Source: a virus (taxonomy: Duplodnaviria > Caudoviricetes). From it: a DNA stretch of 48,888 nt. This document shows, piece after piece, positions 618 to 20,104 of the stretch. The notes beneath the pieces are model-generated. The model worked only from the letters and a program-made list of their open reading frames with translations, was not told where the DNA came from and searched no databases. The stretch covers positions 1 to 48,888 of IMG/VR virus record IMGVR_UViG_3300021476_000274; one strand, given 5' to 3'. How positions within the stretch are numbered: the first letter of the stretch is position 1; every line of letters starts with the position of its first letter. The position numbers and the translations under genes were made by a program.

Positions 618-676
618 TTTATGTTGGCGACCACCGAACCGTCATGATGTCGACTCTTTCGGGTCGTCCCCCGTGG
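618..676 (-). repeat. Dispersed ~60-bp element, copy 1 (divergent centre)
   Basis: + strand reads TTTATGTTGGCGACC-N29-GGTCGTCCCCCGTGG. Its arms match copies 2-6. Confidence 0.85.
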
Positions 677-780
677 TCGAGTGCTTCGACGGAACCGTGC
701 AGCCTTTCGCAGTTTTAAGTCCGAGTCCTGGCATGGCTACTTCCTGTTTTTCCGCTGAACTCACGACCATAGAGTCTACT

Positions 781-837
781 TGGTCACTGGTGACCACGTG
801 GTGACCAACCAACTGGTGACCGATCATCGGTCACCAG
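781..837. repeat. Cluster of GGTGACC/GGTCAC palindromes
   Basis: TGGTCAC-TG-GTGACCA, ACCACGTGGT and a perfect 12-bp inverted repeat CTGGTGACCGAT-C-ATCGGTCACCAG overlapping the recombinase stop codon. Confidence 0.8.
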
Positions 838-1426
838 CCTCACTCTTCTCCGCTGACGCGCAAATCTTCTGCACCCCTGCCGAACTCCGGCCCGTCTCAC
901 GGGCTATCTGCCGGATGCTCATGCCTTGCCGCCTCAATTCCATGACCCGGTCCGGTCCCTCAAATCTAGGACGCCCCAGTTGCACGCCCTTACGCCGGGC
1001 GTTCGCGATTCCGCTCTTGACCCGCTCGACAATCAAGGCCCGTTCGAATTCCGCGAAGGCCCCGACAATTTGGAAAAATAAACGCCCCATCGGGGTCGTG
1101 GTATCGACATCCTGAGTCGCCGAAATGAAATCGATCTCCAGGGCATGAAAGTGGGCCAAGGCGTCCAAAAGCGCCGTGAGACTTCGGGCAAACCGGTCGA
1201 ATTTCCACACCACCACCACGTCAAACGGTCTAGCCAAGGCATCCCGCATCAACTCCATGTACGCCGGGGCTTTCCGGCGTTTCCCAAAGTCTCCCGTGAC
1301 GTGATCGACGTATTCCCGGTAGACCTGGAACCCGCGGCGCTGGGCGAATTCCCTCAACTGAACCAACTGGGCCTCCGGCTTTTGGTCCGCCATCGAAACA
1401 CGAGCGTAGAGCGCAATGCGTTTCAT
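824..1426 (-). CDS. Small serine recombinase (resolvase/invertase, Pin/Hin family) with C-terminal HTH
   Basis: MKRIALYARVS (catalytic Ser), KFDRFARS, AEFERALIVERVKSG...LGRP, then the HTH GMSIRQIARETG. About 200 aa. Confidence 0.95.
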   Translation of the reverse strand: MKRIALYARVSMADQKPEAQLVQLREFAQRRGFQVYREYVDHVTGDFGKRRKAPAYMELMRDALARPFDVVVVWKFDRFARSLTALLDALAHFHALEIDFISATQDVDTTTPMGRLFFQIVGAFAEFERALIVERVKSGIANARRKGVQLGRPRFEGPDRVMELRRQGMSIRQIARETGRSSAGVQKICASAEKSEAGDR

Positions 1427-1584
1427 CCAGAACTCCGTTTTCCGAACGTCCGCAGTACCCATCGGACCGACCAATTCAGCACCGCGCCCATACCGATGCC
1501 CACCAGCGTCACGAGCACGATGGCCCACGCGAGCGTCAAAGTGGCCAACACAATCTTGACGGCATCGGAAGGCGCGGGGATCAT
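1423..1584 (-). CDS. Small membrane protein
   Basis: ATGA-coupled on both sides; one long hydrophobic segment. Confidence 0.6.
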   Translation of the reverse strand: MIPAPSDAVKIVLATLTLAWAIVLVTLVGIGMGAVLNWSVRWVLRTFGKRSSG

Positions 1585-2543
1585 GATGGAAAGTCCCGGA
1601 CTCTCAAATCTTCGGGCCATTCGGACATGTCGCCGCCCTTTCCGCTAACCTGCGTCCATTGTTCAGGGTCCGCGTTCCGCTTACGCGCCCAGTAACTACC
1701 CAACTGCTTAACGAAGCACGCCACGCCAGCCGCGTTACACTGCGCGATGGTGTTCCGCGCCCACGCGATATCGAATGGCCGCGCCCCTGGCCCGCTCTCG
1801 CCGCCGACGATCATCCAGTCGATGTTTGCCACGCCGAAAAAGCGTTTGTACGCTTCGTCGATCAACCATCCCTTGAAATCCACCGGCCCCAGCGCTGGCT
1901 CGTAGCTCACGAACCGTTTCGCCGCCGGAGTCTGCAACAACAGAGGGATGCGCTCGTCGGCGGTCTTTTGATCCTCCACGGAGACGCCGATCCAGAGGTT
2001 GGGGAGCGGAGGCTTAGGGCAGCGCCTAAATTCGAATTCCGTTCCGCGCTTGTTGGCGTGCGCCAAGGACACAAGGCTGTAAGCTCCCGGTCGATGTTCG
2101 CCACCATCCACTGATCGGTTCATCCATTCACGGAGCCGCTCAAAGGTCACCGAGGAGCAATATCCAAGCATCCGCTCGGGCCTCTTTGTGAGCACCTGAA
2201 ACGTATGCTGCGGGCACAGCGCCATCACAGCAAACACGCGGTCAATCGCTCCATCCGATAGCATCTCGTGGAACAGATCGCTCATCGAGTTGACGAAGAT
2301 GCGCTGGGGCTTTCGCCAGTGCAGCGGTTCGGTGAGCTTCGATTTGATCAGTTCGACCCGCCCATTCCATTTCGGCCCTGTGTTGGTAAAAGACGCATAA
2401 CCTTGGAGACTGACCGGAGAAAGCAACAAACCACGCGCCGCTATGCGCTCCGCGTAGCAATTTCTGCAACCTTCCGACACCCGCGAGCACCCGCGCGTGG
2501 GGTTCCAGGTGCGGTCGGTCCATTCGATGCTGGTTTTACCCAC
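1581..2543 (-). CDS. Phage Gp37/Gp68 family protein (DUF5131)
   Basis: TSIEWTDRTWNPTRGCSRVSEGCRNCYA, IFVNSMSDLFH, LTKRP and IVGGESG are typical of this family. Confidence 0.92.
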   Translation of the reverse strand: MGKTSIEWTDRTWNPTRGCSRVSEGCRNCYAERIAARGLLLSPVSLQGYASFTNTGPKWNGRVELIKSKLTEPLHWRKPQRIFVNSMSDLFHEMLSDGAIDRVFAVMALCPQHTFQVLTKRPERMLGYCSSVTFERLREWMNRSVDGGEHRPGAYSLVSLAHANKRGTEFEFRRCPKPPLPNLWIGVSVEDQKTADERIPLLLQTPAAKRFVSYEPALGPVDFKGWLIDEAYKRFFGVANIDWMIVGGESGPGARPFDIAWARNTIAQCNAAGVACFVKQLGSYWARKRNADPEQWTQVSGKGGDMSEWPEDLRVRDFPS

Positions 2544-2897
2544 TCATTCCACCAACCTGCGATGAATCTCGTGCGCAGCCAGCTTAGCACCAAGATCGCC
2601 AGTTCCTAGAGGCTTCGGCGGGCGCTCAGCATCTTGAATGGCCAGTTCCCACCGCTCAGCGCAGGAGATGACGCGCGATGGCTTTCCGGTCCCTTGATCA
2701 AGCGTGAATACCACCCACATGTTTTTCGCTAGAGCAGAAGGCGCAAGGCCCCAACGGTTCTGCCGTAGCTTTTGGATAAGATCCTCCCGGAACTGATCGC
2801 GTGCGATGCGGGCCAGCCGGACGGCATGGATCACGCATGCGATCCCGATCAAAACCAGCCCGAAGGCCGTGACGGCGAGCAATTGGGTCTGGGTCAT
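2544..2897 (-). CDS. Hypothetical protein with N-terminal TM segment
   Basis: Coupled to its neighbours; hydrophobic N-terminus. Confidence 0.6.
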   Translation of the reverse strand: MTQTQLLAVTAFGLVLIGIACVIHAVRLARIARDQFREDLIQKLRQNRWGLAPSALAKNMWVVFTLDQGTGKPSRVISCAERWELAIQDAERPPKPLGTGDLGAKLAAHEIHRRLVE

Positions 2898-3160
2898 GAC
2901 TGTGGATTGAATCCCCGGTACGTAATGTCGGACCGTTTTTCAACGCGCTCGATGAAGACCGTGCTGGTTCCAACTCTGTAGATCACCCGGTAGGGGGGAA
3001 CTTTCAAGCGCCGATAAGATTGCTTGGTCCGTAACTGCATTGAATTATCGGGATACGGGTTATCTTCTAAGTCCAGAATGCTCTCGACGATCAACTTGCG
3101 CCAATGCTCAGGCAGGCCACGGATCGCGCGCCTAGCGGCGTTTTCGATCTTTAATTTCAT
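2894..3160 (-). CDS. RelE/ParE-family toxin
   Basis: 88 aa containing LEDNPYP...YRRLKVPPYRVIYRV...VEKRSDITY. Confidence 0.85.
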   Translation of the reverse strand: MKLKIENAARRAIRGLPEHWRKLIVESILDLEDNPYPDNSMQLRTKQSYRRLKVPPYRVIYRVGTSTVFIERVEKRSDITYRGFNPQS

Positions 3161-3293
3161 AGCCCAGGCTCTTGACGAACGCCCGGAAACTGTAGTGCGG
3201 CTTGCGGCTGGCCCGGCGAATGATATCGTAATCCCGCTGGTCTTCGCGTTCCTGCGCGGTCAGGCGTCGGCGTCGGTTCGTTTTGATCGGCAT
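3132..3293 (-). CDS. Probable short antitoxin (53 aa, missing from the ORF track)
   Basis: MPIKTNRRRRLTAQEREDQRDYDIIRRASRKPHYSFRAFVKSLGYEIKDRKRR. Has a GAGG RBS and overlaps the toxin start. Confidence 0.65.
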   Translation of the reverse strand: MPIKTNRRRRLTAQEREDQRDYDIIRRASRKPHYSFRAFVKSLGYEIKDRKRR

Positions 3294-3430
3294 GACCTCA
3301 AGTGTACACTAAACATCAGCAAAGTGAACAGTCAAAATCAACGGTACCGGTACTCTCATTTCAATGCTTTACGGTACCTGAGAGTCTTGGGGTTTTGTGG
3401 ACACCGTGATATCCTCATTCCATGCCGGTC

Positions 3431-3775
3431 ATGGACGAAACCCCGGAGTTGGCGTTGCGGCGCTTACTCGCGTCCCCGCTCCGGTTCGGCGATCCGGACC
3501 AAATCGAAATCCTCCGGGTCCTCAAGATGGCGGAAGACCTGATCGAAACGTCCCGCGTCTGCGATGTGTGCGATGGGGAAGGCGAGACCAAGGATGAACC
3601 AGGGGAATGCTGGAATTGCGGACGTGCCTGTCAGTATTGCGAGACCGTGGGGAGCGCCTGTAAAAAGTGTAAAGGCACCGGGGAAGTTCCTTGGACCAGA
3701 GAACTGGTCTACAGCTTGCGGGCATCCAATATCGAAAGACTCCTGAAGCACTTGGGTCTCCTGAGAAGCGCATGA
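3431..3775 (+). CDS. Zinc-finger protein (CxxCxGxG repeats)
   Basis: CDVCDGEG and CKKCKGTG; ATGA overlap with the next gene. Confidence 0.7.
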   Translation: MDETPELALRRLLASPLRFGDPDQIEILRVLKMAEDLIETSRVCDVCDGEGETKDEPGECWNCGRACQYCETVGSACKKCKGTGEVPWTRELVYSLRASNIERLLKHLGLLRSA

Positions 3776-5424
3776 AACCAACGCTCGGCACAAATCAGGA
3801 AGGCCGCGATATCCAGATCGACGTTCAGCGTTTGGTTGAAACCCGGCTGCTCGTGACGGCAACGTCGGGGGCGGGGAAAAGCTGGGCGTTGCGCAGGATT
3901 CTTGAACAGACCCACGGGCATGTACAGCAAATCGTCATCGATCCAGAAGACGAATTCCACACATTGCGAGAAAAGTTCGATTACGTTTTGGCCGGGCGCA
4001 ATGGAGGGGATTGCCCGGCGGATGTCCGAAGCACCCAGTTGCTCGCGACCAAACTACTGCAATTGGGCGTTTCGGCCATTATCGGGATTTACGAATTGCC
4101 GCACCATGACCGCATCAGGTTTGTCAGGTTGTTTTTGGAATCGCTGGTGGATGCGCCCAAAAACCTTTGGCATCCCTGCTTGATCGTCATCGACGAAGCC
4201 CACATCTTCAGCCCGGAATCCGGTAAAGGCGAAGCGGAGAGCAAAGCCGCAGTCGCCGATCTGATGAGTCGGGGCCGGAAGCGTGGATTCGCCGGACTGT
4301 TGGCCACGCAACGATACAGCAAATTGGACAAAGATGCGGCCTCGATGTGCACCAACGTGATGGTCGGACGCTTCACTCTCGATGTAGATGTGAAACGCGC
4401 AGTCGATGCCCTGGGATTCATGGGGCGTGATGACCAGCAACGCATTCGCAGCCTGAACGATGGGTACTTTTACTGCCACGGACCGGCCCTGACGCCCACG
4501 GTCGAACTGGTACATGTGGGGCCCGTCAGTACGACACACCCGCGCGCCGGCCAGCGCGCCGCGGCTCCGGCGCCGCCCCAAAGCACCATCAAGAAAGTCT
4601 TGAGCGAACTTGCGGATCTGCCGGCTGAAGCGGAAAAGAAGGCCAAGGGCGAAGCGGAACTCAGGGCTGAAATCCAGCAGCTTCAACGGGACCTCCGGGC
4701 AGCCAAAACCACGATCCCGGCTCCGCAGATTATCGAAAAGCCGGTATTGGGCCAGGACGTGATCCAGCGTCTGGAAGCAATTGCCGATAGCTTGCAGAAT
4801 AGCGGCCAGAATGCAATTACAGTGGGTTCCCTGGTGGCCGATGCCCTAAAACTCACGAAAGCTCCCGAACGTCTCACCAAACCGCCGGAACGTTTGACCA
4901 CACAGCCGAAACGTCTCACAAAACCGTCGGAATCAAACGGAGACCTGACAGGACCGGAACGCCGTATCCTCGATGCCGTCGCGTGGCTTGAATCCTTAGG
5001 GATCACGGCACCGGAACAAGCCGCCGTGGCGTTCTTGGCGGGCTATACGGTTGACGGAGGATCGTTTAAGAATCCCAGGGGCCATCTGAACCAGGCGGGA
5101 TACGTCGAGTACGTTCAACCGGGTCGCATTCGCCTGACGCAATCGGGCTGGAGTTCCGCGAGCATTCCGGACCGGCCGCTGGACGCCACGGAACTACAGG
5201 GCCGCGTCAAAGACCGGCTACCGGGTCCGGAGCGCAAGATCTTGGATGTCCTGATCGCCGCTTATCCACAGCCCATGTCCAATGAAGAAGTCGCGCGCGC
5301 CGCCCATTACGAACCGACTGGAGGATCGTTCAAAAATCCTCGCGGAAGGCTCCGGAGCTTGGGCCTGATCGATTATCCGGCAACCGGCATGCTGGTCGCG
5401 CGGTCGCTGCTGTTTTTGGAATGA
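3772..5424 (+). CDS. HerA/FtsK-superfamily (DUF87-like) ATPase with two C-terminal wHTH-like repeats
   Basis: Walker A ATSGAGKS, IDPE, Walker B IVIDEAH, RGRKRG and ATQR. The block GPERxILD...GGSFKNPRGxL occurs twice. Confidence 0.85.
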   Translation: MKPTLGTNQEGRDIQIDVQRLVETRLLVTATSGAGKSWALRRILEQTHGHVQQIVIDPEDEFHTLREKFDYVLAGRNGGDCPADVRSTQLLATKLLQLGVSAIIGIYELPHHDRIRFVRLFLESLVDAPKNLWHPCLIVIDEAHIFSPESGKGEAESKAAVADLMSRGRKRGFAGLLATQRYSKLDKDAASMCTNVMVGRFTLDVDVKRAVDALGFMGRDDQQRIRSLNDGYFYCHGPALTPTVELVHVGPVSTTHPRAGQRAAAPAPPQSTIKKVLSELADLPAEAEKKAKGEAELRAEIQQLQRDLRAAKTTIPAPQIIEKPVLGQDVIQRLEAIADSLQNSGQNAITVGSLVADALKLTKAPERLTKPPERLTTQPKRLTKPSESNGDLTGPERRILDAVAWLESLGITAPEQAAVAFLAGYTVDGGSFKNPRGHLNQAGYVEYVQPGRIRLTQSGWSSASIPDRPLDATELQGRVKDRLPGPERKILDVLIAAYPQPMSNEEVARAAHYEPTGGSFKNPRGRLRSLGLIDYPATGMLVARSLLFLE

Positions 5425-5642
5425 TGTTCGAACCATACTACATCGGAGTCTTCACGGAAACGCGGGGACCATGGGAATACCGCGTCAAGGTCGAGCGGAA
5501 TCGCCGGACACTCCGTTGGTCTGCTCGAATCATCGGGACCGCCGGCACCATCGTCGAAGGCCAAAAGTCCAGCGAAGCCTGCCGGTCGGCGGTCGAGCAT
5601 ATGCTCCAAAAACTGGAAGATTGGAAAGCGGTAGACCCGTGA
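5421..5642 (+). CDS. Hypothetical protein
   Basis: Coupled start and stop codons within the operon. Confidence 0.55.
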   Translation: MMFEPYYIGVFTETRGPWEYRVKVERNRRTLRWSARIIGTAGTIVEGQKSSEACRSAVEHMLQKLEDWKAVDP

Positions 5643-5827
5643 GGCTGGCGCTCGAGATCCACGCGGCCCGCATGAGGCTCGCGGCGTCCAGACGACGCCT
5701 GACTGAGGCCCGGAAATCCGGGAAACCAGAACGAGTCGCGGCTTTCTGGGAGTCCATCAGGATCGATAACGGCATCATGAGGGGCCAGATCCATCCGGAT
5801 GCTCAACGATCAAAGGGTGTCAGATGA
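5639..5827 (+). CDS. Hypothetical protein
   Basis: GTGA and ATGA overlaps with both neighbours. Confidence 0.5.
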   Translation: MRLALEIHAARMRLAASRRRLTEARKSGKPERVAAFWESIRIDNGIMRGQIHPDAQRSKGVR

Positions 5828-8031
5828 ACCAACAGGAGCAATACGACGATTTTGTCCGGCACAAGATCATCCGGGCTGAACCGTGCGGTTTTGAACCTGG
5901 ATCGTTGAATCCTAAACTGTTTCCATTCCAGGCCGACATTGTCCGTTGGGCCATTCGAAAAGGCCGCGCCGCGCTGTTTGAGGATTGCGGACTCGGCAAG
6001 ACGTTTCAGCAAATCGAATGGGCGCGAGAAGTTGCCCGCCATACCGGGAAACCGGTCTTGATATTTGCGCCATTGGCTGTGTCCAGGCAGACTAAAGCTG
6101 AGGGCATGAAGTTCGGGGAGCAGATTTCGATCTGCGCGACTTCGGTCGATATTGAGGGAACCAGCATCACGAATTATGAAAAGATGAGTAAATTCACGCC
6201 CGATGGACTGGGCGGTATCGTGCTCGATGAATCCAGCATACTCAAAGGCTTCGATGGGAAGACCCGTAAGGCATTGACGACTTTTGCATCGACCATTCCA
6301 TATCGTCTGTGCTGTACGGCGACGCCTGCCCCTAACGACTACATGGAATTGGGCAATCATGCGGAGTTTCTGGGCGTCATGAAACTCTCGGAAATGCTCG
6401 CGACGTTCTTTGTTCACGACGGCGGCGATACATCGAAATGGCGCCTTAAACGTCACGCTGAACAAGAATTCTGGAAATGGGTGTGCTCTTGGGCCGTCGC
6501 GATCCGTAAACCTTCAGACTTGGGCTACGACGATGGAGCTTTCCAGTTGCCGGAACTCAAAATGCATCAGATCACGGTTTCGTGCGACTTCCCAAGCGAA
6601 GGTCTGCTGTTCAGCGTTGAAGCCAAGACGCTCCATGAACGCCGAGGCGCTAGAAAAGCGTCGCTCGATTCACGCGTGAGCCGGTGTGCCGAACTGATAA
6701 ATAACAGTCGGGACCAATGGGCCATTTGGTGTAATCTCAACTCCGAAAGCGAAGCCATTCGAGAGCAAGTAATCGGCTGCATAGAAGTCACGGGCAGCGA
6801 TCCTGACAGCCACAAAGAAGACTGTGCGGTCGCGTTCGCGTCTGGCGAAATCAAACGAATGGTCTCAAAACCATCGATCTTCGGTTTCGGCATGAACTTT
6901 CAATCCTGCCATAACGTCGTGTTCGTGGGATTGAGCGACAGCTACGAACAGTTCTACCAAGCGATCCGCCGATGCTGGCGATTCGGCCAGAAGGATCCAG
7001 TGGATTGCTACATCGTAACGGCTGAAACCGAAGGGGCCGTGGTGAGGAATATTGAACGCAAAGAGAAACTGGCGCGAGACATGATGGACGGTATGGTCGA
7101 ACACATGAAAACCGAAATGCGCAAGCAGGTACGGGGCGACATTACCACGGAAACCCGCGAGAGACACCAGGAAACCGGACCAGGGTGGACCATGGTGCTG
7201 GGTGATTGCGTGACGGAATCCGCGGCCCTTGAGCACGACAGCATCGATTACAGTATCTTCAGTCCGCCGTTTGCTTCGCTCTACACATACTCTCAATCCG
7301 AACTCGATATGGGGAATTCACGGAATCATCGGGAGTTTTATGACCACTTCGGGTTTCTCATCACGCATCTATTGAGGATCTTGAAACCGGGCCGGCTCCT
7401 GTCTTTTCACTGCATGAACTTGCCGATGACGAAAGAACGGGACGGAGAAATTGGCATATGGGACTTTCGCGGAGAATTGATCCGGCTGTTCATTGAAGCA
7501 GGTTTCGTTTACCATTCCGAAGTCGTGATATGGAAGGACCCGGTCACTGCGATGCAACGGACCAAGGCTCTGGGGTTGCTCTACAAGCAACTGCGGAAAG
7601 ATTCCTGCCGATCACGTCAAGGAATTCCGGACTACCTGGTCACCATGCGCAAACCCGGCGTCAATCTCGATCCCGTCACCAAAACGCACGATGGTTTCCC
7701 GGTAAACAGATGGCAGCGCTTCGCCTCACCGGTCTGGATGGACATCAACCCTTCCGATACGTTACAGCGCGAAAGCGCCCGCGAGCACGACGACGAGCGC
7801 CATATTTGCCCGTTGCAACTTCAGGTTATCGAACGCGCCATCGAACTGTGGACCAATCCGGGAGACCTCGTACTATCGCCCTTCGCAGGAATTGGCAGCG
7901 AGGGCTATGTTGCAATCCAGCAGGGCAGGCGCTTCGTAGGAATCGAACTGAAAGAATCCTATTGGAAACAGGCCGTAGCAAATCTGAAAGCCGCTAAAGC
8001 TAAACAGGAAGGCTTGTTCAGCGCGCCTTAG
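5824..8031 (+). CDS. SNF2-like helicase fused to an N6-A/N4-C DNA methyltransferase
   Basis: Helicase motifs GLGKT, LDESS, TATP and QAIRRCWRFGQ; methylase motifs FSPPF and SPFAGIGS. Confidence 0.9.
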   Translation: MNQQEQYDDFVRHKIIRAEPCGFEPGSLNPKLFPFQADIVRWAIRKGRAALFEDCGLGKTFQQIEWAREVARHTGKPVLIFAPLAVSRQTKAEGMKFGEQISICATSVDIEGTSITNYEKMSKFTPDGLGGIVLDESSILKGFDGKTRKALTTFASTIPYRLCCTATPAPNDYMELGNHAEFLGVMKLSEMLATFFVHDGGDTSKWRLKRHAEQEFWKWVCSWAVAIRKPSDLGYDDGAFQLPELKMHQITVSCDFPSEGLLFSVEAKTLHERRGARKASLDSRVSRCAELINNSRDQWAIWCNLNSESEAIREQVIGCIEVTGSDPDSHKEDCAVAFASGEIKRMVSKPSIFGFGMNFQSCHNVVFVGLSDSYEQFYQAIRRCWRFGQKDPVDCYIVTAETEGAVVRNIERKEKLARDMMDGMVEHMKTEMRKQVRGDITTETRERHQETGPGWTMVLGDCVTESAALEHDSIDYSIFSPPFASLYTYSQSELDMGNSRNHREFYDHFGFLITHLLRILKPGRLLSFHCMNLPMTKERDGEIGIWDFRGELIRLFIEAGFVYHSEVVIWKDPVTAMQRTKALGLLYKQLRKDSCRSRQGIPDYLVTMRKPGVNLDPVTKTHDGFPVNRWQRFASPVWMDINPSDTLQRESAREHDDERHICPLQLQVIERAIELWTNPGDLVLSPFAGIGSEGYVAIQQGRRFVGIELKESYWKQAVANLKAAKAKQEGLFSAP

Positions 8032-11758: not shown

Positions 11759-12306
11759 ACGAATAGCGGCTCCATGGCGGCGACCTGCTGCATGATGAGG
11801 TTGGCATACGCGTCTGGATCGCTAGTGCTGTAGACTTTCGCCGTCGCGAGCACCAGTTTTTCCAGGTCATGGTCTTGCGCGTACTGGTCGCCGAAAGGTT
11901 TGTAGAGAGGGGTTTGGGCTAAATGCACCCGAAGTGCAAAGGCCGACGCTAGATCGGGGAACGTGGCGAACCAGTCGTGTACGTCCCACAGCGTGAAGGT
12001 CGTGCCATCGGTCAAGCGGCTTTGCGTAGGCAGATGGGCGGAAGCGGTTCGGGCTGGATCGAGCGTTAGAAATGTGCCGAGTTGCGGAAGGCTGAACCAC
12101 TCGGTAGTCCTGAGGAGTTGCTTCCCTGAGCATCCTGGATAGGCTTTGATGCCGAAGGGATTGTTGCCGGGGGCGAATTCGAGACACCCCGATTCGAGGA
12201 CACATTGGGCCGCAAGAAACCGCGCCGGGCACTCAGGGGTTTCGGCTTGCTTGGCCGCTTGGACGATGAGGACCAAGTTAGCGTTGCGCTGGGATTCGGT
12301 CAGCAT
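11755..12306 (-). CDS. Glucosaminidase/FlgJ-like muramidase (probable endolysin)
   Basis: AAQCVLESG, NNPFGIKA, TTEW and YSTS-DPDAY fit a GH73-like pattern. Confidence 0.8.
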   Translation of the reverse strand: MLTESQRNANLVLIVQAAKQAETPECPARFLAAQCVLESGCLEFAPGNNPFGIKAYPGCSGKQLLRTTEWFSLPQLGTFLTLDPARTASAHLPTQSRLTDGTTFTLWDVHDWFATFPDLASAFALRVHLAQTPLYKPFGDQYAQDHDLEKLVLATAKVYSTSDPDAYANLIMQQVAAMEPLFV

Positions 12307-12312
12307 GTTGGT

Positions 12313-12368
12313 TTGGCGACCAGTAGATTAGTTTTCTCACCCGGCTGCTTTCTGGTCGTCCCCCGTGG
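12313..12368 (-). repeat. Dispersed ~60-bp element, copy 2
   Basis: TTGGCGACC-N32-GGTCGTCCCCCGTGG. Confidence 0.9.
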
Positions 12369-12413
12369 CTTGAGCGCCTTGGAATGAATCGAGAGCCACA
12401 TTTGATGCATCCG

Positions 12414-12590
12414 CTACCACGACAAGATCTTGTTTTTGTAACTGCGGAACTTCGCAAGCTTTTGTCGTGTTTTCAGGAGATTCGTTATTTCCACGACAAC
12501 ACGATGCTGCGTGATCCTGTGCACAACACCTTCGGGTGTCCATCCACCGGGATAATGACGGTGATAACGTACTCGATCACCAACTTTCAA
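12414..12590 (-). CDS. 58-aa KOW/SH3-like protein (missing from the ORF track)
   Basis: TTG start; MKVGDRVRYHRHYPGGWTPEGVVHRITQHRVVVEI... Confidence 0.55.
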   Translation of the reverse strand: MKVGDRVRYHRHYPGGWTPEGVVHRITQHRVVVEITNLLKTRQKLAKFRSYKNKILSW

Positions 12591-12595
12591 GTCCC

Positions 12596-12943
12596 TTACC
12601 CCGCCTTCGCCGCCGTCACGGCAATCTGGACCGCGGTATTGACCAAGTTGACGGCCGCGGGTGTATGGAGGTTTTTGTTCACCACTTCGGTCGCGAGATT
12701 CAGGAGCGCGTTGCCGGTGCTGGTGGGGTCCGAAGAGATTTGGCCCGCGACCGACACCGCGTATTTGGTGTAGGCGGCTTCGATTTCAGCAACCGTTCGG
12801 TTGGGCGTCAGGGCCGCGATGTCGGCCACGATGGGTTCGGCGACCTGGACGATTTCGGCCACGGTGTTGAAGGCCGCTTCGACCTTGGGATTGGTGAACC
12901 AGGATTCTACTTTTTTGAGGAACGTGCTGATGGGGTTGGACAT
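12596..12943 (-). CDS. Hypothetical helical protein near lysis genes
   Basis: Amphipathic, Ala-rich, 115 aa. Confidence 0.65.
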   Translation of the reverse strand: MSNPISTFLKKVESWFTNPKVEAAFNTVAEIVQVAEPIVADIAALTPNRTVAEIEAAYTKYAVSVAGQISSDPTSTGNALLNLATEVVNKNLHTPAAVNLVNTAVQIAVTAAKAG

Positions 12944-12960
12944 GGGATTAGTCTATCACG

Positions 12961-13025
12961 ATGCTTTTATGTTGGCGACCCGAACCCTGGTTTTCACCCG
13001 GCTTGTTTCTGGTCGTCCCCCGTGG
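12961..13025 (-). repeat. Dispersed ~60-bp element, copy 3
   Basis: ATGCTTTTATGTTGGCGACC-N30-GGTCGTCCCCCGTGG. Confidence 0.95.
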
Positions 13026-13061
13026 CCGTGTGCTTCGCGTGGACTTTGGAGCCTATCGTTA

Positions 13062-13862
13062 TCATCGTTTTCTGTTGACGCCCCCACGATCCACACGCAA
13101 TCTTTTGTCGCGTTGGACGCCCTTGGTTGGGTCACTCCAGGATCTCCCGGAGCGTTCACCCCAATTCCGCCGGTTGGCGAACAATTGGTCATCAAGTGCG
13201 AAACTTCCATCTACGACGGATTCCTCGAAGGACGGTTGATGTTCGGAACTCTTGGACTGGGTGGCGATGACTTCCCTCAGGGGCGTCTCTGGCAAGAGCC
13301 TCAATTTGGTCTGATGCATCCTGAGGCAGTCTTCGCACGTTGGCTTGAGGTCAAATCCCACCGTAAGGCTTTGGATCACTTTCTCGCCGCACATCGTGTA
13401 GATCATGGAACGCCGGAGTTCCGTGAAGGTGTTATAGATCGGATCGGAGTAGTGGGTGAGGCGGCCTTCCGCGATGGCTTCCTGTTTAATGACCGCCAAG
13501 CTGGCTTTGTAGGAGTATCCTTGTCTCAGGAATAGGTTTAGGCGGGTATGATTCCATTCGTTGACGGAACTGGCGGCAACCATAGGAATTGTTGATCTGA
13601 AGTGGCTACCAGATGTTCTCTTCGTTCTGGCCACTCTTCGGGGCAAGCAGAGCAGTACGTCGGCATCTTGATGCTCAATCGAAAACTCGGCCCCGCCAAT
13701 TATGAAATGGCTCCAGCACACAGTCCGTTGCTCTACCGTACCGTTCCAGCGATCCCATACGACAATCCCGAAACCCGGATAGGGACACGCGCGCGTTTGG
13801 CATCTTCCAAATGTCCCCAGTGTTTCGTATTCAAGGTAAACACCGTAATGATTCATTTCCAT
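13062..13862 (-). CDS. Hypothetical protein (Cys/His-containing)
   Basis: 266-aa ORF overlapping the upstream HTH gene. Confidence 0.55.
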   Translation of the reverse strand: MEMNHYGVYLEYETLGTFGRCQTRACPYPGFGIVVWDRWNGTVEQRTVCWSHFIIGGAEFSIEHQDADVLLCLPRRVARTKRTSGSHFRSTIPMVAASSVNEWNHTRLNLFLRQGYSYKASLAVIKQEAIAEGRLTHYSDPIYNTFTELRRSMIYTMCGEKVIQSLTVGFDLKPTCEDCLRMHQTKLRLLPETPLREVIATQSKSSEHQPSFEESVVDGSFALDDQLFANRRNWGERSGRSWSDPTKGVQRDKRLRVDRGGVNRKR

Positions 13863-14041
13863 CTGTTCCGCTTGAAGGTCGCGCCCCGCTTGCGATACCC
13901 TTCCATGCCGCCATGAGCGAGCCGAAACAGATTTGCCGTCACTTTACTGACTCCCGCTAGCTTGCCAGCGGCCCGAATGGTCTTGCCTTCAAGAAAAGCG
14001 GCGTGTAGAATCCGTTTCTTTTCTTCCGAGATAACGTTCAT
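13853..14041 (-). CDS. Small HTH protein
   Basis: EGKTIRAAGKLAGVSKVTA fits an HTH pattern. Confidence 0.7.
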   Translation of the reverse strand: MNVISEEKKRILHAAFLEGKTIRAAGKLAGVSKVTANLFRLAHGGMEGYRKRGATFKRNRWK

Positions 14042-14799
14042 GCAGATCTGGTTTTATTGCTGATGGTGTCGATCAACCTGAAATCATCGGTACCCGGCAC
14101 CACACCATCGAGCGAAATTGGTCCATATTTGTCGGGGAACATCCGCCAAAACTGGCCGAGGTACTTTTTGAGATCGCCCTTCAGGTTTTCCATCGTGACC
14201 TCTCCCGACAGAATCGCGACGATCATGTCTTGACAAACGTCGGACCGAACTGCATTGGGCAGACCCTTCGGTACAATGGCGTCCACCGCCATCAGCATCT
14301 CGTGTTCGGCGGTTGGGACTCCGGAGATGTAGGGGTACAGTTCAGGAACCTGTGGGCGCTGTGGCCGCAAGTGGCCCGGCATGATGCGCCAATCGCGGGA
14401 AGATCGGACCCGAAGGCTGTACTCAGGAATCGGTTGTAAGTGAAAATACGTGGCCCCTTGACTGCTGGCCAGATATCGGGCGTATTCCCACAGGCCCGGA
14501 ACCAGGTCGGCGACCTGCTTGCTGGCAATAATCCTGGACACGATGGAATTAAAGGTCAGGTTTTGTGGATTAGTATGGAGGCCGCACATGTGCCGGTAGT
14601 CTTCGGTTTTGGCGAGCTTGACGCCCTCGGTAACGCTCTGGACATCGGCATCCATCAGGGTCACGACAAGATTCCACAATGAACGGATACGACCTTCGGA
14701 TTGCGATCCCATGAATAGCAACAGGGGCCGCAGTAAATGCCGCTGGTCCAGTTCCGACGATTCGATCACCCGTGTTTTGACTGATTCGAGATGGATCAT
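14038..14799 (-). CDS. Hypothetical protein with a sigma-factor-like C-terminus
   Basis: Ends in PISLDGVVPGTDDFRLIDTI, similar to the sigma70 region 3.2 linker. Confidence 0.6.
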   Translation of the reverse strand: MIHLESVKTRVIESSELDQRHLLRPLLLFMGSQSEGRIRSLWNLVVTLMDADVQSVTEGVKLAKTEDYRHMCGLHTNPQNLTFNSIVSRIIASKQVADLVPGLWEYARYLASSQGATYFHLQPIPEYSLRVRSSRDWRIMPGHLRPQRPQVPELYPYISGVPTAEHEMLMAVDAIVPKGLPNAVRSDVCQDMIVAILSGEVTMENLKGDLKKYLGQFWRMFPDKYGPISLDGVVPGTDDFRLIDTISNKTRSA

Positions 14800-14987
14800 T
14801 ATTTCTTGGGGGCCTCTTTCGGCGGGAGGGGCCGGACGCAGTTAAGATGTTTGTCAAACTGGAGCATGTATTCGATGCAGGCTTTGAATCTGTCGCCTTC
14901 CTTGGTCGGGTCTAGACCGGCTTCCTTGGTGATCTCGGTTGCGCGGTCGTACAGATTAAATACTGTGCTCTCGCCTTTTTTACCCAT
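14799..14987 (-). CDS. Hypothetical protein
   Basis: AAGGGGG RBS; TAATG-coupled to the next gene. Confidence 0.6.
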   Translation of the reverse strand: MGKKGESTVFNLYDRATEITKEAGLDPTKEGDRFKACIEYMLQFDKHLNCVRPLPPKEAPKK

Positions 14988-15017
14988 TGTTCCCCCTTAT
15001 GTTAACGGTCTTTTTAG

Positions 15018-15072
15018 GTTGGCGACCCGAACCCCGGTTTTCACCCGGCGGCTTTCTGGTCGTCCCCCGTGG
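15018..15072 (-). repeat. Dispersed ~60-bp element, copy 4
   Basis: GTTGGCGACC-N30-GGTCGTCCCCCGTGG. Confidence 0.95.
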
Positions 15073-15331
15073 TCAAGATCTCCGACGGTCGTGTGGAGTC
15101 CTTAACCCGCTTCCTCGGGATCCTGGTGCCCGCCGGAACCTCCGGGAACCGGGGATGCTCCAGACGGAGCGAAAGCGTCCAGCGCTGCTGGGCTACCGTT
15201 TCGGATGGCTGCTGCGAGCCTTCGGTCCAGAGTGCCGTGATCTTGGTATCGGGAGGCAGGCGAAATTTTTGGTTTCCCGTCAAGTAGCCCAATAGCTCGC
15301 TGGCCGGGATCATGAGGATGATGGCGTTCAC
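15041..15331 (-). CDS. Hypothetical protein ending inside repeat copy 4
   Basis: The C-terminal TGDDQKAAG* is encoded by the repeat. Confidence 0.6.
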   Translation of the reverse strand: MNAIILMIPASELLGYLTGNQKFRLPPDTKITALWTEGSQQPSETVAQQRWTLSLRLEHPRFPEVPAGTRIPRKRVKDSTRPSEILTTGDDQKAAG

Positions 15332-15334
15332 GAG

Positions 15335-15706
15335 TTATGCCCCGGTTTTGACGGCAGCCTTTAATCTGCTGTTCAGGCGTTCAAGTACGATTTGGTCCAC
15401 CAGATCCCGAATCCGCTTTCGCTGCTTCTTATTCCCGATGCGTATGTGGCCAAAGGTCAAATCCGCATAGGGGCGATTGGCTATCCAAAGACGAAAATCT
15501 CCATGATAGTAGGCATTGTGCTCATCCATGATCCAACCGTCAGGATCTTGAACGAGTGCATTGATCACGTAATCTGCAAACTCTTCACCTTTCGTGCTGG
15601 CGTTCCATCCGCCGCGCCACGACAGATATCTTGGAGCAAATGTTGCGAACAAAACAACACCACCGACCATCAGCACGATGAACAACAGCATCGAATCCAT
15701 ACGCAT
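15335..15706 (-). CDS. Hypothetical membrane protein
   Basis: GGGGAG RBS before MRMDSMLLFIVL. The longer ORF-track call joins unrelated segments. Confidence 0.65.
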   Translation of the reverse strand: MRMDSMLLFIVLMVGGVVLFATFAPRYLSWRGGWNASTKGEEFADYVINALVQDPDGWIMDEHNAYYHGDFRLWIANRPYADLTFGHIRIGNKKQRKRIRDLVDQIVLERLNSRLKAAVKTGA

Positions 15707-15714
15707 TCTCCCCT

Positions 15715-16000
15715 TTACGGACCGACGACCGCAGCCCTGAAATCGAGCGCTTGCTCGCTCGATCCGAACGAACCGATGTACTTGAGCCGTCCGTCTTGCG
15801 GTATCCTGACCTCCCAGCGTTTCCTCAAGCGGCTGAACGTCACGCCGACGACTCCGCTCTTGGGTATTGTGGGCGTCGCGAATTTGGCGTCTTCCATGCG
15901 ATTGCGATAGCGGCACCTTGGGCTTACACCACTTGGCATCGCGACGGCCCGCCAGAAACGTTCGAGGGCAGCCCGCGCACTGGACTCTAGTGACCGGCAC
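15715..16000 (-). pseudogene. Zn-finger + AP2-domain protein with a +1 frameshift
   Basis: CAGC...AKWC continues as SPRC...SGVVGVTF...KRWEVRI...YIGSF only if one extra A near 15924 is skipped. Confidence 0.7.
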
Positions 16001-16268
16001 GTTTCGTTCCTTCCGTTTCGAGTTGAGCGATTCGGCGGCGGAGGTACCAGACTGCTTTTTCAAGGTCTTCGATCTGGTGGCCTTTCTTCGCAGAACGCGC
16101 GATGTATTTGACGGAATTCCACAGCAACGCATCCGCCTCAAGGCCCCAGGCTTCTAGGCACTTCACGACTTCATGGGGAACGTCTCCACCGTAGTGCGCA
16201 GGATGGTCTACGTTCCCATCGTTCAGAATCGTTGCCTTAACAATGATTGGATTGCGTTGTTTGCTCAT
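15987..16268 (-). CDS. DUF3310-family phage protein
   Basis: VDHPAHY...NSVKYIARSAKKG...EDLEKAVWYL. Confidence 0.85.
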   Translation of the reverse strand: MSKQRNPIIVKATILNDGNVDHPAHYGGDVPHEVVKCLEAWGLEADALLWNSVKYIARSAKKGHQIEDLEKAVWYLRRRIAQLETEGTKRAGH

Positions 16269-16639
16269 GCCGCCTCCCCGTACCGTCGGTTCAATTCGGC
16301 AATCAGCGCATCTTTGTCGATACCGTGATGCTCCCAGAAGTGCTTGCCGAGCCGATGGATTGAATGGGGTCCCAGCCGGTGATGTTCCCGGCAAAGCGGT
16401 ATAGTTTCCCGGTCGCTCGATTTTTGGCCCAGTCCCCGGACGCCGACGTGCGCGGCTTCCGTTCGTGACGATTGATAAACGTACGGCAAACCCATAGCGT
16501 GGAACTTTTCAACCATTTGGACGTTGCGGCTCCAGCAGACCGTGCAGGGCAGCGACCGGATATAAAGAAGGTACTGCCGATCAATCACGCGGCCCCGGCG
16601 GGCGCGGGTGCGGCGCGGTATCGTCATGATCCAGGTCAT
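16265..16639 (-). CDS. HNH-like / DUF968-type nuclease
   Basis: YLLYIRSLPCTVC...EAAH...GLGQK...IPLCREHH. Confidence 0.75.
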   Translation of the reverse strand: MTWIMTIPRRTRARRGRVIDRQYLLYIRSLPCTVCWSRNVQMVEKFHAMGLPYVYQSSRTEAAHVGVRGLGQKSSDRETIPLCREHHRLGPHSIHRLGKHFWEHHGIDKDALIAELNRRYGEAA

Positions 16640-16744
16640 CGGTGAATCGATCTCCAGACCACGTAGACGGTAGCGATCAAGAGATTGAAGACCAGCAGGA
16701 TAATGAAAACTACCAAAGGATCTCTCGTGCTGGCGATTTGTAGC

Positions 16745-17071
16745 TCATTGCCCCCTTTCCACAGGTGCCATCGTGATGAACGCCGAACTGCGTCGCGTGT
16801 TCGCAACCGTCAGATTCCACCAACTCGATTGGTTCCACATGAAGCATTGCGGGATGTACCAATCTTCATTCCAGTACAACGTAATGGCATCGTGCTCTGG
16901 CATCACGAAGGTCGTGCTTCTGCGCCCATCACACTTGGTGGCATGGACCCGAATGGTTGTGCTGGGTTCGGGTGCATTGCGGCCACTGTCATACAGCCAC
17001 AGCGATATAAGCCCACCGCCCACAACCACCACCACAGAAACGAACAGCCAGTCCTTCACTTTGTCGCTCAT
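16745..17071 (-). CDS. Hypothetical membrane protein
   Basis: N-terminal TM segment; ATGA overlap. Confidence 0.6.
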   Translation of the reverse strand: MSDKVKDWLFVSVVVVVGGGLISLWLYDSGRNAPEPSTTIRVHATKCDGRRSTTFVMPEHDAITLYWNEDWYIPQCFMWNQSSWWNLTVANTRRSSAFITMAPVERGQ

Positions 17072-17595
17072 CTCCTGACCTCCGTTATCAACAGCGTGGC
17101 CGAAATAGCCCGGAGATCTTCGAAGCTGGGCGTCACCATCAGGCCCTTCTGCCGCGCGAATTCCACAGCCTCCAGCGAGATTTCAACAGCATTTCGATAA
17201 CATCTGTTCAGGATATCGGATGCCGCTTCCCCTTGGCCGTTTACCGGGGTAGAATGAGGCTGCCTGACTTCCTTGTGGGCGGATTCTGGTTCAGCCTGGG
17301 GTCCGCCCCCTTTTTCAACGCTCCAGTCGCCTGGGCCGCGCTTCAGGATCGTGAACGGTTCGCCGGGCTTCAGTTTCAATTCGTCGATCATGTGGCCCAC
17401 CTGTAAAGGTAAATACATGGACCGTCCGTCTGTCAAGCTATAGTACGCTTGGTCCTCCCAATTTGGGATACGCGACTGAACACGTTTTCCACGGGGATAC
17501 TTGAGCGCGATGGTCACGGGAATGCCGTTAGAAAGAGTGAGTTTGGGATATCGCTGTAAGGCGTTCATTGGTACCATTGGTACTTTTTCCTCCAT
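17068..17595 (-). CDS. Hypothetical phage protein
   Basis: Intact 175-aa ORF in the operon. Confidence 0.7.
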   Translation of the reverse strand: MEEKVPMVPMNALQRYPKLTLSNGIPVTIALKYPRGKRVQSRIPNWEDQAYYSLTDGRSMYLPLQVGHMIDELKLKPGEPFTILKRGPGDWSVEKGGGPQAEPESAHKEVRQPHSTPVNGQGEAASDILNRCYRNAVEISLEAVEFARQKGLMVTPSFEDLRAISATLLITEVRR

Positions 17596-18269
17596 CGAAT
17601 CTGTGCTGCATGGCGTGCTTTCCCGCTTCGTTCTTCGGGGGACATTTGTGCATATCGTTTTCTTGCGGCGGCGCTGCGATTCACTGATTGATTAGCATGG
17701 GCTAATCGCGCTATTGCCCGGCGCTCTTCGGGCGAACGGCTGGCGTTCATTCGATGCGCCCAGGTGCTTCGCTCTTCCGGGGGGCGCGCCATCATGCGAA
17801 GTCTGGCATTTTCGGCTATTCTGAAACGTACTTCTGGAGTTTTAGCAGCTTCTCGCTTCCTGGCAGTGTCGCTTCGTTCTTTTGCTGGCCTGCGCGCATT
17901 GGCAGCTTTCATCATTTCGCTGCGTTGTTCGTGAGTTCCCCAACCTACCACGCCATCGCCTCCATCCGTACTGTTTACCAAATGGCCACTGGAACGATAT
18001 AAAGCAATCCACCGTTTTTCCACTTCGCCCCACTGTGGCCCAACGCCTGATTCGATTATTTCGATCATTGGACGAAGCCCATTAGACAATAACGACGCTA
18101 TCCATTTCGTCCGATGATTTCGGTTTGGGATTCTGCGTGCTTCCGAAAGATGTAGCGACAAGCGCCGCTCAACCAACTGACATGTAAAACCCACATACCG
18201 GACTTTCATATTTCTAGGGTCTTTAAGTACGTAGATTACCCACGGTTCAGCGTCGCCGAAAGTTTTCAT
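17565..18269 (-). CDS. GIY-YIG homing-endonuclease-like protein with basic C-terminal repeats
   Basis: VIYVLKDPR...YVGFT...RRLSLH...E...LVNSTDGGDG, followed by repeated (S/T)PEER units. Confidence 0.85.
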   Translation of the reverse strand: MKTFGDAEPWVIYVLKDPRNMKVRYVGFTCQLVERRLSLHLSEARRIPNRNHRTKWIASLLSNGLRPMIEIIESGVGPQWGEVEKRWIALYRSSGHLVNSTDGGDGVVGWGTHEQRSEMMKAANARRPAKERSDTARKREAAKTPEVRFRIAENARLRMMARPPEERSTWAHRMNASRSPEERRAIARLAHANQSVNRSAAARKRYAQMSPEERSGKARHAAQIRWRKKYQWYQ

Positions 18270-18427
18270 AGATGGTCCTGGACCGGCCCAGCGGCTTCCT
18301 GGTCCAGATAATCGAGATACGCTTCTTCGAGATCCGCGTCCGTAAGGTCCCGCTCCGGCTCATCGTCCAGCTCGAGCAGCCGGTCCAACGCCGATTCCGT
18401 CAGGCCATCCGGCAGATTGAAGCTCAT
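18266..18427 (-). CDS. Small acidic protein
   Basis: MSFNLPDGLTESALDRLLELDDEPERDLTDADLEEAYLDYLDQE... Confidence 0.6.
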   Translation of the reverse strand: MSFNLPDGLTESALDRLLELDDEPERDLTDADLEEAYLDYLDQEAAGPVQDHL

Positions 18428-18503
18428 CGCCGCCACCACCACAAGCACAGCTCGGGTATCAGGACCCCCAGGGCCGTGCCGATCATCAATCCAATCCAGA
18501 AAG

Positions 18504-18755
18504 TCATAGGCCCGTCTCCGCATATGCCTTGACCGCCGCTTCTGTATCGGTGATTTTTGCGGAAGTTGTCAGTGGCCGCCAGACTTCGAAGCCGTGGCCC
18601 TCGGGGTACGTTTCGAACAATACTGCCGCGTTTCGATAACTGAAAAGCTCGAAATGGAAGCCATTGTCTTGCCAAACAGTCATGGACCGAAAGCCCAGAC
18701 CGATCAGGAACTGGCGGAACTGTCTGGACTGTTCGTCCTTTGTGCCTTTCTCCAT
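18504..18755 (-). CDS. Hypothetical protein
   Basis: AGGAGG RBS before MEKGTKD. Confidence 0.65.
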   Translation of the reverse strand: MEKGTKDEQSRQFRQFLIGLGFRSMTVWQDNGFHFELFSYRNAAVLFETYPEGHGFEVWRPLTTSAKITDTEAAVKAYAETGL

Positions 18756-19104
18756 CGTGATTCCTCCTACGTCTACGATGAGGCTCCGGGCCGTTGTGAC
18801 CAATAGGCCGCCGGTACCGATTTGGAACCGAAATGTACTGAGTTTTCCACTAAGGTGGAAAAGCTGTGAGAACCGTTATTGAAGCGCCGCCACGATAGGT
18901 ACTTAGTACTGGGTTGACTTATGGGCCGAGCGCCGCGTCCTGATCGATCGCCAGCGCGCCGGAGGCTTGGGCTTGTGGTTCAGCGACGGGATCGACCGGC
19001 TGAGCCGTCGCCATATCGTTTGGTTGATCCTGACCGCGTAGCCAGCGTTCGGCATCTTCGTCGGCGTCCCGGAGGGCTAAGATCCAGCAAGGCGTTGGCT
19101 TTGG

Positions 19105-19160
19105 TGTTGGCGACCCGAACACTTCAATTCACCCGGCTGCTTTTTTGGTCGTCCCCCCGG
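19105..19160 (-). repeat. Dispersed ~60-bp element, copy 5
   Basis: TGTTGGCGACC-N31-GGTCGTCCCCCCGG. Confidence 0.9.
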
Positions 19161-19378
19161 CCTGAGGGCGATGCTGGTCCGATGGATTCCAGCGCTTTCA
19201 TCGCTTTCTGCAATATTTCGATTGGGACAACGTTGAGGATTTCCCGGACAAATGCGGCTTGATCCGCGCTGAGTCCTGATTCCTTCATGGTCTCATCGGG
19301 ATACACGAGTAATCGGGCGGCGGCGATTTCATCGGAATAGATGCGTTTCAGCCACGCGCTAAATTCTTCATTGGTCAT
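19124..19378 (-). CDS. Hypothetical protein ending inside repeat copy 5
   Basis: MTNEEF...GRGDDQKSSRVN*. Confidence 0.6.
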   Translation of the reverse strand: MTNEEFSAWLKRIYSDEIAAARLLVYPDETMKESGLSADQAAFVREILNVVPIEILQKAMKALESIGPASPSGRGDDQKSSRVN

Positions 19379-19818
19379 GTCAGGAGTTCTAATATCCGCA
19401 GGCCGCCCTTGGTCTCGCCGCAAGTTCGCCAGCCCGCCGCAATGAAGCACCAGCCGGGATTGGAACTCTTGACTTTGGCGCCGTCTACGTAGGTGTAGAG
19501 GCGTTCTTACGGCCACCGCGACCGCGCGAAATCTACGGCACTGAGGATCAATTTAGTGGACCGCTCCGTCCCTTCGTTACGGAACACCGAACAGTTCACT
19601 CCTGTTTGTCCGCTGTCGTCTATAAACTTTCGCCAGACGAAAAGTGCTCTGGCGTCGGGTGTCAGCAGCACCATCTTTTCACCGGGGCCGACGAATTGGA
19701 ATACTTTGCCCGGGTGCTTTCGCGCGCTGTAATGACGGCGGAAGATCGCCATGGCGGTGGGGTTTCCATCCCGGACCTGAATCCACGGCGCGGACGCGAT
19801 GAGAAACGGCTGCGTCAT
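19375..19818 (-). pseudogene. Mom-like/GNAT-fold DNA-modification protein with an in-frame TAA
   Basis: RRHYS...FVGPGEKMVL...CSVFRNEG...RWP*ERLYTYVD...SSNPGWCFIAAGW. The frame continues past the stop at 19507-19509. Confidence 0.7.
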
Positions 19819-20003
19819 GGACTTTGAAAAGGCCGCCGTTGTGCCGAAATTCTCCCGGCCAGCACGCGCCAATCCACTTGTTCAACCGGAACAATATGCA
19901 CCAGTGACCCGCACGTCCGACAGGTCCACCGAATCCACAATGGAGTTTTGGCGGATTGGGCCTCCGTGCGGCGGCAGCACTCCGGGCACCAGAACCGCGT
20001 CAT
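19815..20003 (-). CDS. Small zinc-ribbon protein
   Basis: CPEC...CRTC; ATGA overlap. Confidence 0.55.
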   Translation of the reverse strand: MTRFWCPECCRRTEAQSAKTPLWIRWTCRTCGSLVHIVPVEQVDWRVLAGRISAQRRPFQSP

Positions 20004-20043
20004 AAGGGGTTTGGCTCCACGGCACCCGCGCGGCACTCGACTG

Positions 20044-20104
20044 CGGGGGACGACCAGAAAGCAGGCGGGTGAAAACCGGAGTTCTGGTCGCCAACATAAA
20101 AGCA
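20044..20104 (+). repeat. Dispersed ~60-bp element, copy 6 (inverted orientation)
   Basis: CGGGGGACGACC-N30-GGTCGCCAACATAAAAGCA, with a perfect CGACCAGAA/TTCTGGTCG stem. Confidence 0.95.

Follow-up and report, generated by a model that had tools for sequence, protein, structure and literature searches.

Six copies of a bipartite repeat in a virus record

The DNA analysed here, referred to as the window, is the whole of the virus record IMGVR_UViG_3300021476_000274 (48,888 bases), and six copies of a short bipartite repeat, which we call element A, are found in it, each consisting of two arms around a spacer. The outer limits of the copies were estimated from the flank lengths common to near-identical copies in related viruses (about 18 nt on the left, 3-10 nt on the right). 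Copy 1 (615..690, core 625-671, 30-nt spacer, minus strand) is of the sense type, with the ATG of a PAP2-family gene 8 nt past its CCA end. A 61-codon open reading frame (ORF; 642..827, minus strand) ends within this copy and starts in an ATGA overlap with the stop codon of a small serine recombinase gene (824..1426, minus strand, PF00239 and HTH_7), which adjoins copy 1 and whose product we judge not to be the acting enzyme. Copy 2 (12304..12382, core 12314-12363, 33-nt spacer, minus strand) is followed, 7 nt past its CCA, by the ATG with which a glucosaminidase-like gene (11755-12306) begins, copy 3 (12963..13039, core 12973-13020, 31-nt spacer, minus strand) has a central T-GAA-A and is followed by ORF 12596-12943, and copy 4 (15010..15086, core 15020-15067, 31-nt spacer, minus strand) takes in the end of ORF 15041-15331 and is followed by ORF 14799-14987. 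Copies 5 and 6 form an inverted pair. The downstream end of this pair is copy 5 (19098..19175, core 19108-19156, 32-nt spacer, minus strand), within which ORF 19124-19378 ends, and the other is copy 6 (20028..20103, core 20046-20093, 31-nt spacer, plus strand), which is of the antisense type and has its CCAA end 17 nt from the stop codon of ORF 20110-20571. The passenger stretch between the two (19157..20045, minus strand) contains ORF 19507-19818 (phrog_24928).

A loose pattern, GACGACC-N28-34-GTCGCC, is met six times in the window, whereas 100 first-order Markov resamples gave 0.02 occurrences on average, which bears out the six copies at the positions given in the initial annotation of this DNA; a seventh copy was not found in the window by a hidden Markov model (HMM). 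Copies 2 to 6 are separated by 610, 2000, 4041 and 890 nt, copy 1 lies 153 nt from the recombinase stop codon, and the distances from copies 1 to 4 to the following ATG are 8, 7, 29 and 32 nt, all of which agree with the block sizes and distances noted before. The divergence of copies 2 and 5 from copies 3, 4 and 6 past the centre was seen again, and copies 3 and 6 are alike over 95 nt at 81% identity, a similarity that extends further left than had been described.

The element had also been called a hairpin. The repeat itself stands, whereas the hairpin label was overstated, with RNA folding z-scores for copies 1 to 6 on the motif strand (-0.17, 0.87, -2.15, -2.23, 1.02 and -0.99) and stems that are not conserved in the family. 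The extended stem is 67% paired, a value that 77 of 500 shuffles equal or exceed, no more than 41% of cells are paired in the GGT-GAAA-ACC inner hairpin, and folding of the spacers is at the level of shuffles (mean z -0.16). A search with Rfam 15 gave no match in the window at gathering score.

Anatomy, placement and distribution of the repeat family

Relatives of the virus were found via a conserved protein (window 45178-45870) and their whole records were then scanned, revealing sites with a variant left arm. Counted with one regular expression, the window has 6 sites, the related records G001, G002, G003 and G004 have 26, 35, 0 and 1, and the contigs L095, L096 and L101 have 5, 7 and 3; HMM counts that include worn copies are 27 for G001, 36 for G002, 9 for L096 (in 10 kb) and 4 for L101. 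G003 has terminal repeats, yet its CheckV estimate is 51%, and G004 is an 18-kb fragment. A 28-kb stretch of the window holds no site where G001 and G002 have many, and the distant relatives G415 to G418 have none. Three, one and one sites were found in G011, G012 and G013, which have at most accessory genes in common with the virus family and whose large ORFs look tailed-phage-like when the sequences are read by eye.

The consensus of 80 distinct sites reads CGGG-R-A-CGACC (R = G/A), a variable spacer and GTCGCCAA; of 83 sites, 53 have a spacer of exactly 31 nt and 79 one of 30-33 nt. The invariance of the arms is partly given by construction, because the collecting pattern fixes most arm positions; lone arms are few. 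Position -6 is uniform within each genome, being G in 6/6 window copies and A in 26/26 copies of G001 and 35/35 of G002. The motif strand is poor in T (12%), for which avoidance of stop codons was ruled out as the reason (61 vs 38 stop triplets).

With genes called by our own hexamer model, 45 of 80 sites were found to have their CCAA end at most 30 nt from a gene boundary that faces it (23 starts, 22 stops), while 300 random placements gave a mean of 3.4 and a maximum of 9 such ends. Relative to the gene at the CCAA end, 45 of these 80 sites are in sense and 35 in antisense orientation. An ATG follows within 12 nt past CCA in 23/45 sense compared with 3/35 antisense sites, whereas an opposite-strand ATG is placed 15-20 nt beyond the other end in 15/35 antisense compared with 5/45 sense sites. 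Of 21 sites with a stop/start overlap in the tail, 16 are traversed in full by an upstream ORF that ends at that stop codon (11 of 42 in control frames). Few sites lie inside the conserved module (1/26 in G001, 3/35 in G002 and 0/6 in the window), and gene direction follows the operon regardless of the orientation of the surrounding sites. That the copies mark gene boundaries, as proposed before, is supported, as is their behaviour as ends of movable gene units.

One base pair in the spacer is conserved. Of the 52 sites whose spacer measures 31 nt, 43 made up the covariation set. Spacer positions 15 and 19 form a Watson-Crick pair in 42 of these (UA 24, GC 10, CG 8, other 1), a number that 0 of 500 shuffles reach, and the loop between them is mostly G-N-A. 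The mutual information of this pair is 1.33 bits, compared with 0.54 for the next-best pair; by direct count it is formed in 50 of the 52 sites, and after clustering in 34 of 36 clusters versus 12.25 in shuffled data. Covariation, which the initial annotation had named as a check on an RNA role, is thus found for one central pair, while the reported stems and inner hairpin are not conserved. Duplex DNA offers no easy account of a pair that closes three bases, from which we infer single-strand recognition, and the site is predicted to be recognised as a folded single strand. Loops of the d(GNA) type are described as stable DNA mini-hairpins in the excerpts available from PMC3201870 and PMC13037366; the single pair 15:19 does not by itself make such a mini-hairpin. 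A role of the spacer as a guide or CRISPR-like spacer was rejected, its match to the site's own flanks (7.1 nt) being close to that with other flanks (6.8 nt), and of 9 exact half-spacer matches in 347 kb one is a known duplicate and the rest are chance-like. Among the sequencing runs listed, one DNA run contains the sequence and there is no RNA run. Presumed likenesses to C4/a1b1 antisense targets, the guanidine-II hairpin, the end of a type I-E repeat, Tn3 ends, a large serine integrase attP and an ECF promoter were considered and set aside.

Searches with the exact window-type pattern returned 7 loci in viral contigs, 1 of them real, and 74 loci in 185,579 species genomes, nearly all of which are chance coding matches; the sole real one lies on a 1.4-kb contig whose sequence also forms part of L095. 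This species-genome scan is blind to the GGGAACGACC variant, which was found later. In metagenomes the exact pattern was present on five contigs beyond the window's own record, with L097 and L099 judged to be chance. GenBank phages and plasmids gave short chance matches only, and a lysin-based search led only to distant loci, all without sites. Among bacterial genomes sampled around G007, single matches occur in 4 of 401 at the level of the phylum (control 0) and in 9 of 201 at the level of the class (control 14), a sample outside of which the true host may lie. As sampled, the family is found in viruses and is not above chance in the bacterial genomes covered. Acidobacteria as host, a guess prompted by the PAP2 gene, gained no support; this phosphatase gene (window 59-616) is host-like, lies at the contig end and may be a captured gene or a provirus edge.

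The virus family may be tailless, as suggested by a HerA-like ATPase, by a conserved protein rich in beta structure and by searches in which nothing matched a tail or portal. A capsid fold search with a model of pLDDT 51 gave no match with E <= 0.001 and so did not bear this out. No description of the motif was met in the open literature by title or abstract start, a search with subscription papers mostly outside its scope and the motif itself not among its terms. The repeat family is real, larger than the initial annotation could see and, as far as searched, undescribed.

Signs of movement and a proposed explanation

Several junctions are filled where relatives are empty (G002 29038, 26955 and 17712; G001 8847), and in G004 a short gene plus a site lies between two ATGA overlaps, while the matching window junction at 41582 is empty. 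Several inserts are flanked on both sides by ATG or ATGA. Near-identical copies (G001 31790/40571 with 100% and 25376/28338 with 97% spacer identity; G002 7774/40132 with 94%) are embedded in unrelated flanks and have about 18 nt on the left and 3-8 nt on the right in common, which gives a unit of about 75 nt. Neighbouring copies that face outwards are separated by a median gap of 336 nt (18/27 at most 500 nt), compared with 1441 nt (4/25) and 1099 nt (1/29) in the other arrangements, a comparison made without a formal null model.

The passenger of copies 5 and 6, that is the family of ORF 19507-19818, recurs in two other viruses, flanked by an element A pair in G001 and, in G415, by two copies of a sister element, C, one of them worn. 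A second passenger lies between element A pairs in both G001 (48669-48876) and G002 (7594-7773). These five passenger-bearing units sit at unrelated loci, with no homology between their outer flanks; the inner ends cut into the passenger termini, whereas the outer ends abut intact genes. Of 21 doublets examined for target duplications, at most 2 show one at any offset for 3 bp and not a single one does so for 5 bp or longer, as would suit an enzyme that cuts without stagger. An extended inverted repeat specific to each pair was considered and rejected.

The repeat anatomy with its fixed spacing, the variation in copy number among colinear viruses, the filled and empty junctions, the near-identical copies in unrelated surroundings, the conserved central base pair and the shared passengers are direct observations, and mobility of the element is in our judgement quite probable. 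We propose that the copies belong to a virus-borne family of short (about 75 nt) interspersed, non-autonomous mobile DNA, which would be recognised as a single strand by an enzyme acting in trans and whose inverted pairs would carry accessory genes. The element would be copied to gene junctions in either orientation, presumably with the CCAA end outermost and precisely positioned and the CGGGG end turned towards the passenger. Two outward-facing copies would then mobilise whatever lies between them, and single copies may be either lone insertions or remnants of pairs. Insertions would survive if the downstream gene stays translated, be it by read-through to the ATGA overlap or by a ribosome-binding site brought along. 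The mover may be an HUH-type (REP/IS200-like) single-strand cut-and-join enzyme, probably supplied by the host; as this is the least-supported step, we hold the proposal as a whole with moderate confidence only. If true, it would extend REP-like replicators to viral genomes and point to an unknown enzyme. A more far-reaching form, which we regard as tentative, is a virus-restricted gene capture system, in which fixed-length bipartite ends in several interchangeable dialects (A, C) at starts and stops would frame accessory genes, transfer them between tailless-type and tailed phages and rebuild translational coupling, all without target duplication or an encoded transposase. How phages gain accessory genes with exact boundaries is a long-standing question, usually answered by non-homologous joining followed by selection, with PeSLs as a local exception, and the defined ends, the one mutable base pair and the empty and filled junctions make this question testable.

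A number of observations weigh against the mobile-element proposal. A Y1 transposase (PF01797) was found in 0 of 4 virus records searched, and neither transposase nor integrase was detected in 71 window ORFs and 66 ORFs of relatives, except for one IS1595 transposase in L095 that has no site nearby; a conserved 558-aa protein, considered as a candidate, was not recognisable as a recombinase. There is no sign of a master sequence, spacer identity within genomes (0.37 in G001, 0.51 in G002) being similar to that between genomes (0.33-0.52), with the window spacers as an exception (0.85 over three pairs). The arms are near-invariant and decayed copies few, and the combination of diverse spacers, preserved arms and a fixed position -6 suggests selection on each copy. 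Furthermore, tails compared between partner copies show no greater likeness than tails of random copies, some inverted pairs enclose core genes that have stayed in place, and the 33 copies of sister element C show no comparable covarying pair. The arms never vary and so give no covariation for their pairing, and as the relatives are about 65-75% identical, borders are approximate and gain is told from loss only by inference. Joints between copies or an excision product were not seen in the contigs of one run (possibly the source), which proves little, as rare forms are dropped from contigs.

The main rival, which we consider possible though rather unlikely, is a selected regulatory cassette, for example an operator or a site of pausing or processing used by a factor of the virus or the host, that would act independently of orientation and be shuffled by homologous recombination like the PeSLs of T4-type phages. 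Arms that stay invariant while spacers drift, the constancy of position -6 in each genome, the concentration of copies outside the conserved module and the presence of different elements at the same junctions in L096 and G415 would all suit such a cassette. Colinear relatives nevertheless manage without sites, as seen in G003 and the 28-kb stretch of the window, none of the window copies has a sigma-70 match, sites arise at junctions without a prior site, and passenger genes are truncated by the inner ends; homologous recombination between inverted pairs, moreover, cannot excise a gene. Empty junctions that contain no site also speak against a cassette system in which some site-specific recombinase would cross over within the spacer. 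This reading appears improbable even though two arms of 9-11 bp at a fixed distance with near-dyad symmetry, frequent TG/CG near the centre, the divergence past the centre between window copies 2 and 5 and copies 3, 4 and 6, a tandem duplicate in L101 and 152 nt that the L096 copies 1314 and 3859 have in common on one side only are what it would lead one to expect, since the central bases vary across the family, no flipped genes were found between inverted sites and no candidate recombinase tracks with the sites.

Still less probable is a structured RNA acting from transcripts, be it in antitermination, as a riboswitch-like element or as an antisense pair. It could draw on the T-poor motif strand and on a central U-GNA-A that may be like a T-loop or lone-pair triloop, but G-U is absent at pair 15:19, spacers fold like shuffles, and Rfam gave no match in the window at gathering score or at the L115 sites with E up to 10. 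The 35 of 80 copies in antisense orientation likewise weaken, together with the poorly conserved inner hairpin, the boxB-like or start-associated RNA that had been suggested at the outset. The other suggestion made there, a shufflon with hix/res-like sites of the 824-1426 serine recombinase, is very improbable. In the window a site does lie within about 150 nt of the gene, in G001 and G002 one immediately precedes its ATG, and G012 has a site plus a PF00239 gene; with 26-35 junction sites per genome, however, adjacency to one gene is expected. PF00239 genes are present in the window, G001, G002 and G012, and two of them in G003, which has no site, and homologues in G416 and G417 are likewise without sites, whereas G011 (93% complete) has three sites and no such gene. 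Gene and sites hence do not regularly co-occur, and genes between inverted sites keep the operon direction. The hix-like core TGAAAACC-NN-GGTT, whose presumed likeness to hixL was put forward in the initial annotation, is confined to window copies 3 and 4 (2/82 sites) and is not a family feature. The repeat family is not a shufflon of the neighbouring recombinase. Just past the recombinase gene, four close GGTCACC/GGTGACC palindromes (window 775-835) are a candidate for its real binding site.

Known repeat systems and further elements

In integrons, one attC site lies downstream of each gene in a single orientation and insertion takes place at an existing site; element A differs by its 45 sense and 35 antisense sites and by empty junctions without a site. 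A closer likeness is found to REP and REPIN sequences, as far as they are described in the excerpts of PMC3116915, PMC8266576 and PMC6006769. Both are short, intergenic and present in many copies and both orientations, with inverted doublets of short interior, no target duplication found and a sign of single-strand structure. In REPINs, inverted doublets are the moving units and singlets remnants (PMC3116915), and TnpA-REP, which like RAYT is an HUH transposase of such elements, cleaves single strands (PMC8266576); for element A, the short median gap of outward pairs (336 nt versus 1099-1441 nt, no formal null model) matches the doublet feature. Element A differs in lacking a GT[AG]G foot (column counts, 80 sites) and a continuous stem-loop, having instead a 31-nt free interior, in doublets that hold genes instead of folding into one long hairpin, and in being viral, without a Y1 gene in the 4 records searched. 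Without GTAG foot, stem-loop or linked enzyme, we do not file it as REP. Class 3 HUH-Y1 proteins of Planctomycetes and Acidobacteria are associated, in the excerpt of PMC6006769, with CnGA-footed atypical structures in high copy, and C-n-G-A follows the left arm in many copies of element A, which serves as a lead only.

The PeSLs of T4-type phages are repeats too, sited in variable regions where one gene stops and another starts, and go along with gain and loss of accessory genes, which resembles the situation here. As presented in the excerpt of PMC2839356, they combine a sigma-70 promoter, a terminator and a ribosome-binding site and give rise to mini-circles by exchange between copies. Element A sites, on the other hand, occur in both orientations and arise at empty junctions, and none of the 4 promoter-like sigma-70 matches in 500-20400 lies at a copy. 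With MITEs and Tn3-derived composite miniature elements, element A shares non-autonomy and inverted ends around passenger genes; it differs by the lack of target-site duplication and by the frequency of single ends, terminal inverted repeats being present in doublets and absent from many single copies. Dozens of one motif per genome are also known from mycobacteriophages, whose Cluster O 17-bp repeat, SAS and stoperators measure 13-17 bp and keep similar positions across a cluster according to the excerpt of PMC4351075, whereas the motif here is bipartite, about 50 bp long and present in 0 to about 36 copies at differing junctions. Element A is best read as a non-autonomous, virus-restricted element that is REP/REPIN-like in its working, yet as belonging to neither REP, MITE nor PeSL.

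Several further elements were noticed. Sister element C consists of TCAGAGCGCGAACG, 35-36 nt and AGCGCCAA, has the same tails, both orientations and a T-poor interior like element A, and its interior resembles the 15 nt to the left of element A in some copies. It is present in G415 (25 copies), G418 (2 copies), L201, L202, L204 and L218-L225, that is in at least five contigs in viral_contigs plus G418. Element B, an ACCA followed by a GC-rich hairpin with a GNA/GNRA-type loop and an AAC/AAA tail, lies near gene ends in L095 (7), L096 (9), G001 (26506), L089 and L175 and looks like a classical tetranucleotide-plus-hairpin REP. A copy of it is contained, together with an HNH-like gene, in a 584-nt piece (L098 4930-5513; L095 9595-9600) by which the near-identical contigs L098 and L095 differ and which has a short repeat at its borders. 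Element D in G418 (for example 19330-19384, 25844-25900 and 30134-30185) is a hairpin that recurs with CTCCAG in its loop and with CCGA or CCAA ahead of it.

In the window, ORFs 14038-14799 and 13853-14041 look by eye like the two pieces of a divided sigma factor, corresponding to its middle and last regions; Pfam gave no match for this stretch (13853-14799). An ORF at 17565-18269, which overlaps its neighbours, is GIY-YIG-like with a weak PHROG homing endonuclease match, and an HNH gene lies at 28349-28885. Nested repeats fill 21740-23094, namely 22228-22357/22820-22949 (130 nt, 89%), 22371-22462 with its inverted counterpart at 23003-23094 (92 nt, 95%) and 21740-21781/22544-22585. A tRNA gene near the end of the G002 record (56024-56097) suggests an integration site, and a palindrome, CAACCGGTTG, recurs in related non-coding stretches of L096, G003, G416 and G417, where it may serve as an operator or origin.

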